The notes beneath the pieces were generated by a model that was not told the origin of the DNA, did no database searches, and saw only the letters and a program-made list of their open reading frames with translations. This document shows positions 18,883 to 28,382 of a DNA stretch of 32,000 bases, one piece after another; the first letter of the stretch is position 1, and every line of letters begins with the position of its first letter. Made by a program: the position numbers and the translations under genes. Source of the stretch: Bellilinea caldifistulae (GTDB lineage Bacteria; Chloroflexota; Anaerolineae; Anaerolineales; Anaerolineaceae); the NCBI RefSeq assembly GCF_001306055.1, contig NZ_LGHJ01000017.1, forward strand, positions 210,001 to 242,000, in the 5' to 3' direction.

Positions 18883-19664
18883 ACCTTTGGATTTTCAGAG
18901 ATATACTCGCGGATGATCTCGTCCACATCCTGCTTTTTGCCGTTTTTCGGGGCGCGCTGACGGGACCGGAAAACATTCACGCCGTTCAGAATCGACCAGG
19001 GACCGGCAATTTTGAGCCCCTGCGCCAGCATCTCCCGGCAGGTTGCGTCAATTTCCTCCGGTGAAGCGCGCATCCGCATCAGCTCCAGCATCGCATCATG
19101 CCAGCGGCGGGTCTGGCCTCCGCCGCCGATAGGCGCATGGATTCCCGTTGCGGCGCTGAAAGCCTGAATCAACGGTTTCATCGTCGGTGAAAAATAATCG
19201 TCGTCAGGTTTTTGGTCGCCGCCGCTTTTTGCTTCTGCATCTACTTCTACTTCTTTTTCTTCTTCTTTTTCTTTATCTTCTTCTATTTCTTCTTCTACGT
19301 AACGTTTCGTTACACGTTCGTTTCTGTTTTTGTAACGTTTCGTTACATCTTTGCGGTGATTGGCAACGCGTTCGGCCGGCGTATCAGCATCTTGACGCTC
19401 CGCAAAATGAGTCACAACCCAGACACCAGGCTCCGCTTCATGCACCACCCCGACTTCTGCCAGGCCGTGGAGAGCCTCGCTCAGCTTCGTCTCATCGAGA
19501 CGGAGGATCCACGCCATATCTTCTACGGGCGGTAGTACACCATCGTTCCCGTTCCTGCCCGCAAGCAAGAACAGCTCTATGGCACGCCGGAATAACCAGT
19601 CTGGCATACGTCCCATTTTGGGATCGTCAAGTATCTCAATGTATAACTTTATCCATCGCCTCAT
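18879..19664 (-). CDS. Phage replisome organizer / DnaD-like replication initiation protein
   Basis: 261 aa. The N-terminus WIKLYIEILDDPKMGRMPDWLFRRAIELFLLAG is typical of the phage replisome-organizer N-terminal domain. It has an acidic linker and a C-terminal helical domain. Confidence 0.7.
   Translation of the reverse strand: MRRWIKLYIEILDDPKMGRMPDWLFRRAIELFLLAGRNGNDGVLPPVEDMAWILRLDETKLSEALHGLAEVGVVHEAEPGVWVVTHFAERQDADTPAERVANHRKDVTKRYKNRNERVTKRYVEEEIEEDKEKEEEKEVEVDAEAKSGGDQKPDDDYFSPTMKPLIQAFSAATGIHAPIGGGGQTRRWHDAMLELMRMRASPEEIDATCREMLAQGLKIAGPWSILNGVNVFRSRQRAPKNGKKQDVDEIIREYISENPKV
19299..19346. repeat. Two copies of the 15-bp palindrome GTAACGTTTCGTTAC, 33 bp apart, inside the replisome organizer gene (candidate origin or iterons)
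   Basis: The copies are at 19299-19313 and 19332-19346 and are identical. They lie immediately next to a long T/C-rich, AT-rich tract (19205-19298). Confidence 0.5.
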
Positions 19665-20709: not shown

Positions 20710-21185
20710 TGCTGCACCTCCTCAAACCCCGGCAGGGGTTTATCGAAATCGAGAATATCCGCAGGAATAAGAATGGGGGTAATCAATGACCGGCTTCCGT
20801 GTGCAACCGCCGCCATCATCTCACTCAACAATACCGTGGTGATATTGACCGGCAGTGTCTTCGGGTCCACTTGCCGGAAGCCGTTGGCTTCCATCCACTT
20901 GATCAGGTCACTCATCCGGAAAACATTCACGCCGTTCGCGTTGACCATCCGCAGCAGATCGTCCACAACGTCGCCGGAGCGGTTGATCACCGCAAAAGCA
21001 TACTGCCCGCGGTGCGGCCAGATCATCACGTAGAGGTTATGCCCCTCATAAACTGCCGTCCCGCTGCGCCCCGCTGCTGCTGCCCGCATACCCGCTACGG
21101 TGGAGTAAAAATCGAGTGGATAAACGCTGGCACAGGCAAGCGAGATCAACGCAAGCAGCAATACAAAAATAGATAACCGTTTCAT
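20706..21185 (-). CDS. Secreted or periplasmic protein with signal peptide (159 aa)
   Basis: MKRLSIFVLLLALISLACASVYP is a classic signal peptide. Function unknown; a superinfection-exclusion-type role is possible. Confidence 0.5.
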   Translation of the reverse strand: MKRLSIFVLLLALISLACASVYPLDFYSTVAGMRAAAAGRSGTAVYEGHNLYVMIWPHRGQYAFAVINRSGDVVDDLLRMVNANGVNVFRMSDLIKWMEANGFRQVDPKTLPVNITTVLLSEMMAAVAHGSRSLITPILIPADILDFDKPLPGFEEVQQ

Positions 21186-23029: not shown

Positions 23030-23058
23030 ATTATAGCACCTTATATGAAAATGTCAAG
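23030..23058 (-). promoter_or_regulatory. Consensus sigma70 early promoter (TTGACA-17-TATAAT with TGn extension)
   Basis: On the minus strand, the -35 TTGACA is at 23053-58 and the -10 TATAAT at 23030-35, preceded by TGC. The spacer is 17 nt. It overlaps the start codon region of the plus-strand XRE gene. Confidence 0.6.
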
Positions 23059-23530
23059 CGTATCTTACAATAAATCAGGAAATTCTTGCATCGTTGATGA
23101 CATAATGTTAGGTGTGGATTACAATTTTTCCGAATGGTTGTTGAATCAGTTAAATTCACGTGGGTGGACACAAGCAGAACTGGCTCGCAGAGCAGGCGTT
23201 AGCCGAACAGCAATAAGTGATGTAATCTCTGACAAACACTCTGCTGGATTTGAACTTTGTCTTGCCATTTCTCGTGCGCTGAATCTGCCGCCCGAAACCG
23301 TCTTCCGTGCCGCCGGTCTCTTGCCGCCGGTTTCGCCGGCAATTGCACTCTCCGAAGAGGTAATGTATCTGCTGCAAAAGTTACCGGTGGAAGAACAAGA
23401 GCGTTTTCTTGCATTGTTAAGGTTTGAGGTGGAAAGACAAGCAAAAAAACCTCCAACAAAACCGCCAAAGAAAACATCGCCAACGAGCCGGGCAGAAAAA
23501 CCGGCTCGAAGTGCGTTAAAAGAAGAATAG
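23045..23530 (+). CDS. XRE-family HTH transcriptional regulator (CI-like prophage repressor candidate)
   Basis: 161 aa. SRGWTQAELARRAGVSRTAISDVISDKHSAGFELCLAISRAL is a classic XRE/Cro-CI HTH. It is divergent from the early operon. The C-terminal tail is lysine- and proline-rich. Confidence 0.8.
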   Translation: MKMSSVSYNKSGNSCIVDDIMLGVDYNFSEWLLNQLNSRGWTQAELARRAGVSRTAISDVISDKHSAGFELCLAISRALNLPPETVFRAAGLLPPVSPAIALSEEVMYLLQKLPVEEQERFLALLRFEVERQAKKPPTKPPKKTSPTSRAEKPARSALKEE

Positions 23531-23600
23531 AACACAAATTCTATAAATTTGAGGGAAAAGCATTATAATGAATGTAAATATTCTCCACTGGAAGTAAACC

Positions 23601-24353
23601 ATGAAAGACAAAGTTTCCCTCACCCTTAATGGTGAAATTCCTGTCAATCTTTTTGCAGAAGCTATATCCGGCTTATCCGGTTTGCTTCATGCTCTTACTG
23701 AAGAGATCGCCGCTGGCAAAACTATTGAGTGGCAGATTATAGAGCTCAGCGCCGGCAGCGCCACGGCTGTCATTCAAGGAATTGCTGATACCGCCGAAGA
23801 CGTGGAAAAAATTACTACCGCATATGCTTTCATTGGTCGGCAGTTGCAAATTGGCAATACGATTCCTTATTCTCCAAAAGTTATTCAATCTGCAAGAAAG
23901 ATTGCCAGCATTCTTGACGGAAAAGTTTCTTCCATCGAATTCGGCATTGATGGCGAAATCTATCACATAACCCAATCTGGTTTTCAAGAAAAACCAATGA
24001 CCAAAGCCTATTCTTACGGCGTTATTACGGGAAAGGTAGAAAACCTGATTGGACATAAAACACTAAAATTTACTCTTTACGATAATCTTTTCAATCGTGG
24101 TGTTACCTGTTATGTAGAAGAGGAAAAACGCGAGTTATTAAGAAATATCTGGGGTAAAACCGTATCGGTTACCGGCTATATATACCGTGACATTATTACA
24201 GGTCGCCCTCTTGAAATTCACGACATTGAAACTGTTGAAATTGTTCCTATGAGAGAACCTGGTGCTTATAAAAAAGCTCGAGGCGCTCTTTCCTGGAAAC
24301 CCGGTGACGAAACTGCAGATCAAACCATACGGCGATTGAGAGATGACAATTAG
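23601..24353 (+). CDS. Unknown 250-aa protein, upstream partner of the PIN nuclease
   Basis: Low-GC ORF with a TATAAT at 23564-69 upstream. No motif recognised. The C-terminal ~90 aa (GVITGKVENLIGHKTLKFTLYD...VSVTGYIYRD...LEIHDIETVEIV) look like a small beta-barrel or OB-like domain. It overlaps the next gene by 11 nt. Confidence 0.6.
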   Translation: MKDKVSLTLNGEIPVNLFAEAISGLSGLLHALTEEIAAGKTIEWQIIELSAGSATAVIQGIADTAEDVEKITTAYAFIGRQLQIGNTIPYSPKVIQSARKIASILDGKVSSIEFGIDGEIYHITQSGFQEKPMTKAYSYGVITGKVENLIGHKTLKFTLYDNLFNRGVTCYVEEEKRELLRNIWGKTVSVTGYIYRDIITGRPLEIHDIETVEIVPMREPGAYKKARGALSWKPGDETADQTIRRLRDDN

Positions 24354-24843
24354 TAGACAAAATCTATACTGGGATTCTTGTGTGTTTCTTAGATACATCA
24401 ATAACGAATTAGATAGTACCATTATTGAAGAATTGATGAGACGAGCCGAATCGAAACAAGTCAACATTTTTACATCCACAATTACTATAGCCGAGGTAAC
24501 CCACGCAGCCCAGGAAAGAAATCAATCTGCCCTGAATTCAGTCATTGAAGATGTATTACAAAATCTGTTCGGTCCTCCTATCAAACTGGTAGATTATTCA
24601 ATAACCATTGGTTATGAAACCAGAGATTTCATTCGCACTGCGATGACTCATTCTAAAAAGATCAAGCCAATAGACGGTATTCACCTTACTACTGCATCCT
24701 GGATTGATCGTTACATTGCTCGGTTGGACGAATTCAACACTTATGATCAAGTCCTCAAGTCGCTCTATCCCGATATCATATCCATCAAAATTATTGAACC
24801 ACATGTTGATCAATTACCTTTATTCAACAATCCGCTCCCATAA
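24343..24843 (+). CDS. PIN-domain (VapC-like) ribonuclease
   Basis: 166 aa. The four acidic positions occur in PIN order: LYWDSCVFL (D), ITIAEVTH (E), KPIDGIHLTTA (D), FNTYDQVL (D). Confidence 0.7.
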   Translation: MTISRQNLYWDSCVFLRYINNELDSTIIEELMRRAESKQVNIFTSTITIAEVTHAAQERNQSALNSVIEDVLQNLFGPPIKLVDYSITIGYETRDFIRTAMTHSKKIKPIDGIHLTTASWIDRYIARLDEFNTYDQVLKSLYPDIISIKIIEPHVDQLPLFNNPLP

Positions 24844-25020
24844 CCTAATCAAGCCGGTATTGGATCTAAACCTGGCTTACTGGCAAGAGCGGGAGGCGCT
24901 TTCAGAACAAATCAAGCTCCTGGAAGAAGATTGAGATTGAATTTATCTAAATCCTTTGTTCAATGATGCAGGTCTTGTTTTATATGACTGCCAATAATAA
25001 AAACCCCCAAAAGGTGACCT

Positions 25021-25398
25021 ATGACAGAACCCTATTACGACAACAAAGCACAATATGACCGCATCCGCGGTTACATCATTCCCGGCGAAACCATCTTTGC
25101 CGTTTATGACTGCAAAGGCGGCGGCACGGGGTTTGTCGGCATTACGGATCGGCGCATCATCTTTTACGATCAGGCCTTCCTGACCAAAAAGAAATCAATG
25201 GTTTCGATCCCCTACAATCAGATCATCGGCATTGCCTCGGTGGATGAAGGAGTCATCTTTCAGACCAGCGAAATTACCCTGCTCACCGCCGCCGGCAATT
25301 ACACTTTCCAGTTCCGCGGCGCCGATAAAGCCCACAATGCCTACAGCTTCATCATGAATCAACTGCTTGGACAGGCACATCCCCAATTGAAGGGATAA
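25021..25398 (+). CDS. Bacterial PH-domain protein (YokE/bPH-like)
   Basis: 125 aa. GETIFAVYDCKGGGTGFVGITDRRIIFYDQAF...SIPYNQIIGIA...ITLLTAAGNYTFQF matches the bacterial pleckstrin-homology pattern. Confidence 0.65.
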   Translation: MTEPYYDNKAQYDRIRGYIIPGETIFAVYDCKGGGTGFVGITDRRIIFYDQAFLTKKKSMVSIPYNQIIGIASVDEGVIFQTSEITLLTAAGNYTFQFRGADKAHNAYSFIMNQLLGQAHPQLKG

Positions 25399-25399
25399 C

Positions 25400-26389
25400 C
25401 TATCCCCCCAGCCCCATGATCATATCTCTAACGTCATCACTGACGAGCTTCCCGTAAATCCCGTCAGTGATACCCATATTGGAGTGCATCAGATTCTGGC
25501 TGATCGCCTTCATCTGCGCCGGCGTCCTGGCCTGCTTGAGCGCGTAAACCGCGTGCCCGTGCCGGAATTTGTGCGGCGATTTATAAGCCACACCCGCGCG
25601 CTCACATAAGACTTTTAGATCATCCCGCAGACTGTGGCGCACCTCAAGCCGCTTGCCGGTCGGCTTCTCGGTGGTGATCTCGCCGAAGCGGTCCAGATGG
25701 GCATACCAGTACGCCTCCGGCGGCAAGCGTTTCCGTAGAAACGCATCCCATTCCTGCACCACTTCAAGCAAGTCGGGAATGTTCAGCAGAAACGTGACCG
25801 CCGCCTTGCTGTTTTTGGTGTGCACGCCCTTTGCCGGCAGCTGCAACACGCGGAGGTTAGCCAGGTCCACGCACTCCAGCGGCAGGGTCACGAATGCCCC
25901 AACCCGCATCCCGGAAAGAAACAGAAACGCAACCGCCGCCCGCATCCGGCGCTGGGCGGTCGTATCTGCCGGGCAGCTAACCAGCTTGCGCACCTCTTCC
26001 AGGGTATAAAGCTCGCGCGATTCCAGCTGAGCCTGCTCACTGCGCCCCCGCGACGGGCGCAGACTCTCCACCCAGCGCGCGTCCATGTTTTTGTAGCGCC
26101 GCGGGTACTCGCTTTTGGCCCAGTTCAGGAACGCCCGGCAGGTTTTCATCATCGCGTTGAGATGCGCCGCCGAGAGCGGCTTTTTATTTTTGCCGATCAG
26201 CGCCTCGCAATAAACCGGAAAGGCCGGCCTGATTCGGCCGCACTTGCTGAACGGCTTTTCATCTGCCCATTCCAGCAGGTGGCGCAGACGCGACCAGAGC
26301 GTGTTGATCGTCCCCGGTGAGAGCTGGCGCACGCTGGCCTGGAAGTCCAGGTAGGCTTTCACATCGAGGTAATTCTGTCTGTGGATCAT
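25400..26389 (-). CDS. int: Tyrosine recombinase / phage integrase
   Basis: 329 aa. It has an N-terminal SAM-like core-binding domain and a catalytic region with R (LSGMRVGAF), HKFRHGHA, LMHSNMGITDGIY (H...Y). Confidence 0.9.
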   Translation of the reverse strand: MIHRQNYLDVKAYLDFQASVRQLSPGTINTLWSRLRHLLEWADEKPFSKCGRIRPAFPVYCEALIGKNKKPLSAAHLNAMMKTCRAFLNWAKSEYPRRYKNMDARWVESLRPSRGRSEQAQLESRELYTLEEVRKLVSCPADTTAQRRMRAAVAFLFLSGMRVGAFVTLPLECVDLANLRVLQLPAKGVHTKNSKAAVTFLLNIPDLLEVVQEWDAFLRKRLPPEAYWYAHLDRFGEITTEKPTGKRLEVRHSLRDDLKVLCERAGVAYKSPHKFRHGHAVYALKQARTPAQMKAISQNLMHSNMGITDGIYGKLVSDDVRDMIMGLGG

Positions 26390-26793
26390 GAAGACTTAAT
26401 GAAGCGGTGGATTTTACCGCCGCACTCCGGGCATGTGCCGCTGAGTTGGACCACATTCTGGCGCCGGCTGTGTGGGCGCATCTTCGGCGACTGCACCATC
26501 ACCACGCGGTTGCAGCGCATGCAATACGCGTGCCCGGCCGGCATGGGGGGCTTGCTTTTGCCGCGCCGGGTGGTGGTCAGGTAGTCGCGCGCCCATTGCG
26601 CAAACTGCCGTCCGTTGATCCACACCTTCCCGCCGGCGTCCAGTACCACCGGGGCACCGGCCGGTATATACGAGCGATAGACCGTATCGTGAGAGACCCC
26701 CAGTTCCTCTGCCAGTTCGGCAGGTTTATAGAGCATATTGAGCAGCCGTTCCAAAGCGGCCGCCTTCGATCGGTTCAGTCGTGGCGCTGGCAC
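26386..26793 (-). CDS. HTH plus C-terminal Zn-ribbon DNA-binding protein coupled to the integrase (excisionase or regulator candidate)
   Basis: GTG start with a GGAGGTG RBS. The HTH is YKPAELAEELGVSHDTVYRSYI and the Zn-ribbon is CMRC...CPEC. Its stop overlaps the int start (ATGA). Confidence 0.55.
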   Translation of the reverse strand: MPAPRLNRSKAAALERLLNMLYKPAELAEELGVSHDTVYRSYIPAGAPVVLDAGGKVWINGRQFAQWARDYLTTTRRGKSKPPMPAGHAYCMRCNRVVMVQSPKMRPHSRRQNVVQLSGTCPECGGKIHRFIKSS

Positions 26794-26920: not shown

Positions 26921-26957
26921 CGTGAGGTTCGGGGGTTCGAGCCCCTCCGCGCCCACC
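26921..26957 (+). other. tRNA 3'-end fragment (variable region, T-arm, acceptor 3' strand): prophage att core
   Basis: GGGGG-TTCGAGC-CCCTC-CGCGCCC-A-CC is a canonical T-arm plus acceptor 3' strand. No matching 5' acceptor strand, D-arm or anticodon arm can be folded upstream. It lies next to the integrase operon. Confidence 0.6.
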
Positions 26958-26986
26958 TTCACAGGGATTCCATCCCTGTACTCCGC

Positions 26987-27024
26987 AACGCACCTGATGG
27001 ATCCCTGGGTGCGTTTTGTGTTTT
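26987..27024 (+). terminator. Rho-independent terminator following the tRNA fragment
   Basis: 8-bp stem AACGCACC/GGTGCGTT (26987-94 / 27008-15) followed by TTTTGTGTTTT. A separate perfect hairpin CAGGGAT-tcc-ATCCCTG lies at 26962-78. Confidence 0.5.
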
Positions 27025-27041
27025 CAGCAGGAAGGTCAGAT

Positions 27042-27506
27042 ATGGTTACACTCCCCACATTTCTACCCGTTGCCGAAGCCGCCCGCAAGTACGGGCTGGA
27101 TGAGGCCCGCTTGCGCGCTCTGATTGAGAAAGGTAAAATCAGGGCTGGAGTGGTTGCGGGAGAAATGGTCGTGAGCGAAGAAGAAGTACGAGGACAAGCC
27201 ATTGAGGAGAAAGGTCTCCACAAAGAGGATTTGCCGGAGTATCAGAAACATGCGCATTTGAAAGGGCAGGCAATTTGGATTAGAGAAGCAGAAAGAAGTT
27301 ACGGAGTACCAGCAGAAACTTTATCCACATGGGCTAAAAAGGGATATATTAGAATAGTTGGTAAAAAAGGAAACAAAGTTTTGCTGGATGAAGCGGATGT
27401 TGCTTATTGTTCAGATGTATACAGAAAATCAGGCAAGCAAGGACGCATTCTGTTCAATCCAGATGGAACTCCTTATAAACCTAAAACAACTTCACTTGTG
27501 ATGTAA
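27042..27506 (+). CDS. Tandem excisionase/MerR-type HTH protein
   Basis: The preferred start is ATG 27042 (AGGAAGG RBS), since the upstream part of ORF 26922-27506 overlaps the tRNA fragment and terminator. It has two HTH repeats: LPVAEAARKYGLDEARLRALIEKGKIRA and IWIREAERSYGVPAETLSTWAKKGYIRI. Confidence 0.6.
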   Translation: MVTLPTFLPVAEAARKYGLDEARLRALIEKGKIRAGVVAGEMVVSEEEVRGQAIEEKGLHKEDLPEYQKHAHLKGQAIWIREAERSYGVPAETLSTWAKKGYIRIVGKKGNKVLLDEADVAYCSDVYRKSGKQGRILFNPDGTPYKPKTTSLVM

Positions 27507-27599: not shown

Positions 27600-28290
27600 A
27601 GCACTTTTACAAACCAGCGTCCCGCTGAATGCCTCAAACACAACGCCCCGGCGAAAGGGCGTTGTGCGCCCGACCGGGGCGTTCCGTGAGCCGTGCGGTA
27701 ACACGCTCACGGTTGAGGCAAGCAGACCGTGACTGCTCACCCCATCCGCGATTGTAGCATGAGATGACAGCCCTCTGCAAGCCTCTCACAAGGAATGTGA
27801 TTTGCAGAGGGCTTTGTGTTTCCCGTGCGGTGTTGGCTCAAGGCCTTTCAGGCGGCAGGTGCGTTGTGGCGGGTTCAAGTCCCGCCCGCCTGAATTCCGG
27901 TTTTGCCATGCTAACGTCGGCTGAGCAGGGAGGTGGGAGCGGGGCTGAGTCATCAGCACCCGGCGGGGTAAGGGACGGGGAGCCCTTGCCTGACGGTGCG
28001 GCAGGTGAGACCATCGGAAGCCTGCCGGGGGACGTGACAGCCGGGAGAGACCGGCAAGCACCTTGACAAGCGACATGGTAATCCTCTGTTTCCAACCGCC
28101 ATAGACGGGCAGGATGATCCCCGATCCTGCGGTGGGTGCAAGTCCCGCCCGGTTGGACTGCCAAACCTGTCGGTGTCGTTGCACCATCAACGGACAGGTG
28201 CAGCCCGGCACACCCTAACCAGTGTCGGGAAACAGGCAGGGTGACGGCCCGGAGAGACGGGCGCGAGGGCAATCCCTCTCACTTGATCAA
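27600..28290 (+). ncRNA. Large (~690 nt) highly structured phage RNA of unassigned class (GOLLD/ROOL-like context), co-transcribed with tRNA-Met
   Basis: It has no credible ORF. Perfect helices include 27640-48/27657-65, 27684-91/27705-12, 27769-80/27802-13 and 27999-28005/28021-27. There are two GAGAGA-loop hairpins, two tRNA-like T-arm modules, a promoter upstream and a tRNA immediately downstream. Confidence 0.6.
27769..27821 (+). terminator. Possible internal attenuator/terminator-like hairpin within the large RNA
   Basis: 12-bp stem AGCCCTCTGCAA/TTGCAGAGGGCT with an inner TCACA/TGTGA helix, followed by TTTGTGTTT. It could yield a short ~220-nt RNA, with read-through giving the long form. 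Confidence 0.3.
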
Positions 28291-28361
28291 GCGGGAGTAG
28301 CTCAACGGAAGAGCGGCGGCGTCATGAGCCGCAGGGTGAAGGTTCAAATCCTTCTTCCCGT
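28291..28361 (+). tRNA. tRNA with CAU anticodon (Met, or Ile2 if lysidine-modified)
   Basis: Hand-folded cloverleaf: acceptor GCGGGAG/TTCCCGT (two G-U pairs), D-arm GCTC-AACGGAA-GAGC, anticodon arm GCGGC-GTCATGA-GCCGC, variable AGGGT, T-arm GAAGG-TTCAAAT-CCTTC. No encoded CCA. Confidence 0.8.
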
Positions 28362-28382
28362 TCTGTGAAAACGAGGTTTCTC

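Follow-up and report, generated by a model that had tools for sequence, protein, structure and literature searches.

A probable mobile toxin-antitoxin-like cassette pairing a divergent PIN nuclease with a large, predicted OB-fold partner in a Bellilinea caldifistulae prophage

The 32,000-nucleotide (nt) stretch of Bellilinea caldifistulae DNA analyzed here (contig NZ_LGHJ01000017.1, positions 210,001 to 242,000; hereafter the window, with positions counted from its first letter) is confirmed as prophage by PHROG matches to major tail, major head, head protease, portal, large terminase, and replication proteins. Between the repressor and integrase genes of this prophage lie three adjacent open reading frames (ORFs) on the same strand, all of which exist as they had been described in an earlier interpretation made from the letters alone (hereafter the sequence-only reading): a gene for a 250-amino-acid (aa) protein, here called gene A, a gene for a PIN-domain nuclease, and a gene for a protein with a bacterial PH (bPH) domain. 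Our subject is the pair formed by the first two, which we refer to as A-PIN:

23601..24353, plus strand: gene A, putative antitoxin or regulator of 250 aa, ORF confirmed
24343..24843, plus strand: PIN-domain nuclease, putative toxin of 166 aa, PF01850 match above the gathering cutoff
24343..24353, plus strand: 11-nt overlap of the gene A stop and the PIN start, read from the sequence
25021..25398, plus strand: bPH (YokE-like PH) gene, 125 aa, Pfam match

The PIN start codon (ATG at 24343) is embedded in the last codons of gene A (…AGA GAT GAC AAT TAG; R-D-x-x-stop), an arrangement that indicates translational coupling; the overlap from which the sequence-only reading had deduced such coupling is real, and the pair that it joins is strictly co-conserved. 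Across 94 junctions the overlap measures 8 nt in 42 and 11 nt in 41 (together 83/94), and the same geometry is found in loci from Trueperaceae and Actinomycetota. When loci are collected around gene A, 21 of the 23 distinct cases have PIN as the next gene downstream, the two exceptions (L016 and L114) being decayed copies; these loci come from Anaerolineae, other Chloroflexota, one Trueperaceae, one Actinomycetota, two IMG/VR viral contigs, and five long metagenome contigs. When loci are collected around PIN, A lies directly upstream in every metagenome locus with enough upstream sequence (76/76). An apparent orphan A at locus L110 was rejected as such, an intact PIN there having merely been missed by the gene caller. 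The two proteins co-diverge in strict 1:1 linkage, and no third gene recurs beside them across loci, a helix-turn-helix (HTH) regulator being present in the closest relatives only. The conserved unit is the two genes only, 23601-24843 (1.24 kb).

The product of the downstream gene matches the PIN family PF01850 with 27.3 bits against a cutoff of 23.6, gives a further weak match to PIN_12, and carries the RefSeq name “type II toxin-antitoxin system VapC family toxin.” The conserved acidic active site that had been recognized in the single protein is upheld in an alignment of 78 nonredundant homologs (median identity to the window protein 34%), where the catalytic residues are kept as follows:

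24373-24375, plus strand: catalytic codon D11, kept in 78/78 homologs
24493-24495, plus strand: catalytic codon E51, kept in 77/78
24673-24675, plus strand: catalytic codon D111, kept in 78/78
24739-24741, plus strand: catalytic codon T133, kept in 77/78
24745-24747, plus strand: catalytic codon D135, D or E in 77/78

It is D135, part of a T-x-D motif, and not the less conserved E130 that supplies the fourth acidic residue; Y9, R98, and H114 are invariant in the alignment as well. The family is acidic (median isoelectric point, pI, 5.3), and since sequence and profile searches reach no PIN protein of solved structure, it represents a divergent PIN subfamily. By its sequence, the protein is predicted to be a catalytically competent ribonuclease (RNase), a divergent VapC-like toxin. 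Both genes are under purifying selection, with ratios of nonsynonymous to synonymous substitution (dN/dS) of 0.08-0.15 for A and 0.12-0.19 for PIN in comparisons with close relatives (0.08-0.19 overall).

The pair differs from its surroundings in base composition. Over 23501-25000 the G+C content (GC) is 0.38-0.41, vs. ~0.53 for the prophage and 0.60 for the integrase gene, and the low-GC segment to which the sequence-only reading had assigned all three genes holds for A (GC 0.417; GC at third codon positions, GC3, 0.34) and PIN (GC 0.375, GC3 0.36) but not for the bPH gene (GC 0.505, GC3 0.64), which is outside the dip. Other loci repeat the pattern: in 42 of 45 the cassette has a GC below that of its flanks, with a median difference of -7 points (Wilcoxon p = 3e-8). 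In locus L024, homology to the window spans exactly 23601-24843, from the start of A to the stop of PIN, and neighboring genes vary from locus to locus: a phage terminase, an Arc-like protein, an endolysin, DUF5131, a Dam methylase, ParB, and IS1595, rve, or DDE transposases in some, and housekeeping genes for an MFS transporter, an Fe-S oxidoreductase, an aminotransferase, ribosomal proteins, or ArgRS in others. A-PIN is a horizontally mobile cassette, often found next to transposases.

Where the cassette has decayed, it has done so unevenly. An intact A stands beside a PIN cut to ~37 residues in L114 (8743-8964) and beside a PIN with an in-frame stop in L050 (664-1173) and L101 (2965-3456), and at no locus is A wholly missing beside an intact PIN, the OB domain and C-terminal tail of A (described below) always being at least present. 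At L047 (2517-3477), where the cassette sits right after a GC-rich housekeeping gene, A has lost its N-terminal domain; its last 156 residues remain, made up of the OB domain and tail plus a remnant of the middle helix-hairpin region, and an intact PIN follows with the 11-nt overlap. This asymmetry of decay is as expected for a toxin and its antidote. Both genes are degraded at L016 (6004-6530), with an unrelated TIR-domain gene downstream; an effector swap, in which a short A would have been joined to the TIR protein, was considered for this locus and rejected, as the PIN start survives for ~30 codons and marks a decayed cassette.

Gene order, coupling, mobility, and an intact nuclease site are all in keeping with toxin-antitoxin systems of type II, and we conclude, with a probability of roughly 60%, that 23601-24843 is a self-contained, mobile, type II toxin-antitoxin-like cassette with a novel large antitoxin, carried as prophage cargo. 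The sequence-only reading had hesitated between an atypical toxin-antitoxin and a sensor-effector pair and had grouped the bPH gene with it; linkage, coupling, and decay bear out a toxin-antitoxin-like cassette, but the grouping of three genes does not stand.

The gene A protein is 100% identical to B. caldifistulae “hypothetical protein BECAL_02977,” and every source labels the proteins of its family “hypothetical.” Single-sequence searches with it return no usable match in Pfam, PADLOC, NCBIfam, PHROGs, or PDB sequences. Scanning 58 family members against Pfam finds no domain, with weak tRNA_anti matches in merely 2-3 of the 58; a profile of the same 58 retrieves from the PDB designed coiled coils alone, at E > 0.7; and DUF6575 (Pfam) is found neither in A nor in the 58 relatives. 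The earlier impression that the partner belongs to no known antitoxin or DNA-binding family now extends to A and 58 family members searched against Pfam, NCBIfam, PHROG, and PADLOC. At the level of whole systems, PADLOC-DB v2.0 gives 0 matches for A and a merely chance-level Cas12c match for PIN (E = 0.03), and no named defense system in it matches the pair, just as the sequence-only reading had been unable to name one. Neither the region nor gene A has a match, at the DNA or protein level, among GenBank phages and PLSDB plasmids, and we found no description in the literature of a PIN partner with an OB fold.

The 7 clusters returned by a word-indexed homolog search are a sensitivity artifact; an exhaustive profile search detects 1,534 representatives (clusters at 50% identity), of which 453 reach E <= 1e-30. 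Nearly all are of ~250 aa, and neither domain fusions nor A-PIN fusions occur among the 247 listed and 1,534 detected members; in N-terminally extended members extra domains were looked for and not found, and the extensions are probably miscalled starts. The A family is large, previously unannotated, and widespread in Chloroflexota, and the A-PIN pair also occurs in Deinococcota, Actinomycetota, and Gemmatimonadota.

An AlphaFold model of A computed from a 58-sequence alignment, with a predicted local distance difference test (pLDDT) score of 91.7 and a predicted template-modeling (pTM) score of 0.67, replaced a 6-sequence model of pLDDT 64.6 and resolves three regions:

23601..23975, plus strand: N-terminal alpha/beta region of A (aa 1-125), from AlphaFold secondary structure
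24009..24242, plus strand: OB-fold domain of A (aa 137-214), topology beta1-3, alpha, beta4-5, from the model and Foldseek
24243..24350, plus strand: C-terminal basic tail of A (aa 215-250), from conservation and charge, putative PIN-binding segment

The N-terminal region is acidic (pI 4.8) and is modeled as a beta-alpha-beta-beta-alpha unit followed by a further helix and a beta hairpin; it looks ferredoxin-like in the model, and weak ferredoxin-like, TRADD-N, and TiaS fold matches had been obtained for it with the low-confidence 6-sequence model. A variable linker (aa 126-136) leads to the OB domain, which is, as modeled, a nucleic-acid-type (tRNA_anti-like) five-stranded barrel with a helix between strands 3 and 4. 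Foldseek aligns this domain in the PDB with the LysRS anticodon-binding domain, ExoVII XseA, Stn1, the RecG wedge, Teb1, and TiaS (probability up to 1.00, E ~4e-4 to 2e-3) and, among viral structures, with phage single-stranded DNA (ssDNA)-binding proteins, the best-ranked at E 5.6e-4. It is also the most conserved region of A, with the lowest column entropy over 154 family members, the conserved residues including G140, G144, R152, F157, Y160, D161, C170, W184, G192, and R196. The terminal OB-like beta domain of the sequence-only reading is accordingly present in the model and in the Foldseek matches, but it is not terminal: a 36-residue basic tail (pI 9.5) comes after it, with two short helices, the lowest pLDDT of an otherwise good model, and the motifs Y-x-x-A-R-G (223-228) and E-x-x-I-R-R-x-R-D (240-248), in which R227, R244, and R247 are conserved.

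The decay asymmetry, the L047 deletion, and the flexible, basic, Arg-rich character of the tail support a neutralizing role for the C-terminal half of A. In VapBC complexes, VapB tails bind and neutralize the toxin. For the present pair we infer A-PIN binding, neutralization by the tail, toxicity of PIN, an RNA target, and a biological role for the pair along the following lines: A would bind PIN and hold it inactive mainly via its C-terminal half (OB fold and tail), with the Arg-rich basic tail occupying the acidic groove of the PIN active site in the manner of the VapB C-terminal tails, and the N-terminal alpha/beta domain would play an accessory part in sensing, oligomerization, or regulation. 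In the prophage, the cassette would then most plausibly serve addiction, that is, stabilization of the element, or the killing or arrest of cells infected by another phage once the partner has been inactivated; a defense role is plausible.

Several observations weigh against a toxin-antitoxin cassette of this kind. No DNA-binding domain is recognizable in A, which leaves classical autoregulation unexplained, and no solved VapC relative is detectable for the presumed toxin, as neither single-sequence nor profile searches reach a PDB PIN protein at E <= 1. Neither A nor PIN fits any defense-system model in PADLOC-DB v2.0. The asymmetry of decay comes from 3-4 metagenomic loci in which assembly errors are possible, and the chance of 3/3 disruptions falling in PIN is ~0.06 given the gene lengths. 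A regional mirror-tree analysis did not single out the tail of A, the correlation tracking column number instead. Finally, it is the OB domain and not the tail that is most conserved in A, and such high conservation suggests a ligand-binding role beyond simple inhibition; together with the modeled fold, it suggests that A may also bind a nucleic-acid ligand.

Such a ligand would be central to a sensor-effector arrangement for abortive infection, in which the OB and N-terminal domains of A sense phage ssDNA or RNA or damaged tRNA and thereby release or activate PIN, with degradation of RNA as the outcome. Such an arrangement would add to the toxin-antitoxin reading and is not at odds with it; we regard it as possible though on the whole unlikely. 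It would account for a partner three times the size required for simple inhibition, whose most conserved domain resembles ssDNA-, tRNA-, and anticodon-binding OB folds, and it would agree with a cassette that is patchy and mobile, like defense genes, and that occupies a prophage cargo slot filled in sister phages with LTD- and HEPN-domain proteins (see below). PADLOC models, by contrast, give no match; most chromosomal copies lie among housekeeping genes and not in recognizable defense islands; and the loss of the N-terminal domain in L047, where PIN is intact, makes that domain dispensable for containment and any sensing role of it pure conjecture. No PDB chain matches the whole A protein (TM-scores of 0.25 or less). 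Structural neighbors in BFVD point in both directions: the best matches are uncharacterized phage proteins (E 3e-9 to 7e-5), one of which is labeled DUF6575 (TMq 0.35, at fold level only), a domain that occurs in an experimentally selected defense system (Vassallo 2022), but the TM-scores of these phage matches are merely 0.27-0.38 and sequence support is lacking.

Two of the phage proteins, LE1-0037 and LIET2 gp034, were examined as sequence relatives of A and rejected, hhalign against the A profile giving a probability of 0.2, and are kept as a fold-level lead only. LE1-0037 (381 aa), matched by length to BFVD Q6NE06, belongs to Leptospira phage LE1 (L020; 38735-40413, minus strand) and lies directly downstream of LE1-0038, a protein with DUF4365, which we take to be a PD-(D/E)xK nuclease-like domain; on the strength of the fold match, the two may form a comparable pair, an A-like protein beside a nuclease. 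In a more specific and likewise unlikely form of the sensing idea, A would be a novel sensing antitoxin: phage single-stranded nucleic acid or tRNA, bound by the OB domain with help from the N-terminal domain, would displace the Arg-rich tail and free the RNase. A-PIN would then be a hitherto unrecognized abortive-infection family, widespread in Chloroflexota and present in the three further phyla named above, and phages would harbor remote structural relatives of A that are coupled to other nucleases, LE1-0037 beside LE1-0038 being an example.

The nucleic-acid-type OB fold can also be read as that of a working enzyme, with A the RNA-binding specificity subunit that brings a substrate such as tRNA to PIN for RNA processing on behalf of the element or its host, in analogy to PIN domains fused to TRAM, S1, or CSD modules. 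The TiaS-like order among the fold matches, a ferredoxin-like domain followed by an OB domain, is in keeping with such a role, as are the known PIN-TRAM fusions (COG4956; PMC5499597) and the strict 1:1 linkage and co-divergence of A and PIN. We nevertheless consider a two-subunit enzyme quite improbable. Neither the 247 listed nor the 1,534 detected members of the family include an A-PIN fusion; the cassette is mobile and patchily distributed, with frequent transposase neighbors and foreign GC; and the overlapping order with the antitoxin first is typical of toxin-antitoxin pairs. Furthermore, PIN is repeatedly pseudogenized beside an intact A, as one would expect of a toxin that is costly to keep more than of an enzyme that is useful.

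The toxin-antitoxin-like cassette is set within a prophage region whose other genes delimit it on both sides:

23045-23530: HTH_3 regulator, flanking A-PIN, Pfam
25400-26389: tyrosine integrase, flanking the bPH gene, Pfam

The sequence-only reading had placed the bPH gene, whose 125-aa product matches bPH_3, GRAM, and bPH_1 at ~1e-7 (Pfam), in one module with A and PIN, and a joint action of the three proteins, with bPH as a membrane- or ligand-associated accessory, could be argued from their adjacency on one strand in the window and from the occurrence of bPH proteins in phages (PHROG 7115). Comparative data contradict it. The bPH gene adjoins A-PIN at no other locus examined, and its GC3 of 0.64 differs from the ~0.35 of the cassette. 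Eight sister-prophage loci (L102-L109) share the order HTH_3 repressor, variable segment, bPH, integrase, and DUF5679 protein, and keep bPH abutting the integrase while the cargo is different or almost absent; backbone homology between them and the window resumes exactly at the bPH ATG (25021). The bPH gene is ordinary prophage backbone beside the integrase and outside the A-PIN cassette, and a three-gene module, to which we would assign only the slimmest likelihood, is effectively refuted by these comparisons already.

What the same sister prophages and breakpoints confirm is the variable cargo slot that had been suspected between repressor and integrase. The equivalent of window positions 23531-25020 holds in them another four- or five-gene cargo that includes proteins with domains of the conflict type (LTD and HEPN); its genes encode a 186-aa protein, an LTD-domain protein, and a 206-aa protein, followed either by a 199-aa protein and a 131-aa HEPN protein, whose genes overlap by 4 nt, or by a fused 308-aa HEPN protein. 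The slot of L104 contains a 105-aa ORF only. The pair of 199-aa and HEPN proteins looks like another toxin-antitoxin or defense candidate, and PADLOC returns for the alternative cargo of the sister prophages a weak LTD match only.

Two sequence elements ahead of A had likewise been linked to the pair:

23527..23544, strand not assigned: palindrome ATAGAA-N6-TTCTAT, overlapping the stop codon of the HTH gene
23564-23569: TATAAT, read from the sequence

Both are present, but neither is part of the cassette. In the four closest relatives with the HTH gene (L005, L006, L022, and L023) the palindrome arms and the TATAAT are kept around a variable spacer; in L024, where the cassette has another upstream context, they are absent, and their absence when the cassette sits elsewhere marks them as local, HTH-linked context. 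For the palindrome in its exact form, the expected number per window is 0.06, by a test that is post hoc. A promoter scan called no sigma-70-type promoter ahead of gene A, because the TATAAT lacks a usable -35 hexamer. Within the 3' end of the HTH gene lies a further, GC-rich inverted repeat, GAGCCGG-N9-CCGGCTC (23485-23507), whose arms are kept with a different loop in the same four relatives and which may be an RNA hairpin between repressor and cassette. At the other end of the HTH_3 ORF, a perfect sigma-70 consensus (TTGACA, 16-nt spacer, TG-n-TATAAT) at 23057..23030 on the minus strand points leftward, probably as the divergent early (cro-side) promoter; it overlaps the first ATG of the ORF (23045), so that the true repressor start may be a downstream ATG.

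Further features belong to the prophage at large. A gene for an HTH and DUF5679 zinc-ribbon-like protein (26386-26793, minus strand) abuts the integrase gene and is kept beside it in all sister prophages; its product may be an excisionase or recombination directionality factor, and a second excisionase-like ORF with weak PHROG matches is found at 26922-27506 (plus strand). In the early region, a 22-nt perfect direct repeat, CCGGAAAACATTCACGCCGTTC, occurs at 18966-18987 and 20916-20937, the copies being 1,950 nt apart. The only tRNA, and the only Rfam match over the window, is a tRNA-Met:

28291-28363: tRNA-Met

Upstream of it stand two copies of a 24-mer resembling a tRNA T arm (…GGGTTCAAGTCCCGCC…) at 27865-27888 and 28128-28151, at neither of which Rfam or ARAGORN makes a call, and the segment 28131-28262 matches, in reverse orientation and at 84% identity, positions 381-512 in the early region of sister prophage L102. 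The 24-mers and this segment may be att or tRNA remnants of integration events.

The proposal of a toxin-antitoxin-like cassette is the first functional hypothesis for a family of >1,500 clusters that is called “hypothetical” in all databases, and it defines a PIN subfamily whose partner is, as modeled, a three-module OB-fold protein and not a small DNA-binding antitoxin. Should this partner both restrain an RNase and read a nucleic-acid signal, the pair would offer a compact model for how toxin-antitoxin systems are triggered, an open question for VapBC, and would add a defense or addiction module to the Chloroflexota, whose phage-host biology is almost unexplored. The hotspot between the repressor and the bPH-integrase backbone, with its interchangeable cassettes, is in addition useful for mining further systems.

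Among known systems, VapBC is the closest in layout. The two have in common a PIN nuclease with a D-E-D-(T-x-D) catalytic set, a partner gene that is immediately upstream, co-directional, overlapping, and co-inherited, a two-gene mobile format on prophages and near insertion sequence (IS) elements, and a partner C terminus that is flexible and Arg-rich like the toxin-binding tail of VapB. They differ in the antitoxin itself: A has 250 aa, vs. ~70-100 aa, and contains no AbrB, RHH, Phd/YefM, or HTH DNA-binding domain but a predicted alpha/beta domain and OB fold, with no sequence similarity to any catalogued antitoxin, and its PIN belongs to a divergent subfamily with no detectable relative of solved structure. 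Because it is not a small antitoxin with a DNA-binding domain, A is not classed here as a VapB.

Prophage hotspots for morons and defense genes near immunity and integration functions are familiar from lambda, with rexAB beside cI, and from mycobacteriophages, with defense genes near int and the repressor. The slot described here resembles them in its variable cargo between repressor and integrase, with alternative cassettes or almost nothing in the sister prophages; it differs in that the cargo of this Anaerolineae prophage group has no known defense phenotype. To the DUF6575 defense proteins (Vassallo 2022), A is tied by a fold-level BFVD match alone.

A wider frame is provided by NetFlax, according to which PIN/VapC-like toxins pair with many unrelated antitoxin folds, such as PanA, DUF2680, DUF2080, and SynP1 (PMC10440598). 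A-PIN shares the bicistronic architecture of those pairs, which are linked to phage defense, yet A matches none of their antitoxin domains in Pfam and is larger and multidomain, with an OB fold of predicted nucleic-acid type. A survey of the PIN superfamily (Matelska 2017; PMC5499597) likewise describes partners that are small single-domain proteins and RNA-binding barrels that occur only as fusions, e.g., PIN-TRAM. The PIN-TRAM protein COG4956/YacL and the PIN of Rrp44 with its CSD and S1 modules are similar to A-PIN in joining a PIN nuclease to an OB-like nucleic-acid-binding module. There, however, both parts belong to a single housekeeping protein, as a fusion that recruits substrate, whereas A and PIN are separate genes of a patchy, mobile cassette in which PIN is seemingly costly. 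The modeled fold of A is reminiscent of the C-terminal ferredoxin-like and OB tRNA-binding module of TiaS, an alpha/beta sandwich followed by an OB fold, and the OB domains of TiaS, LysRS, and AspRS are of the same tRNA_anti type (Foldseek probability 0.96-1.0); with whole-chain TM-scores of ~0.25, no sequence similarity, and no catalytic domains in A, this likeness is one of fold only.

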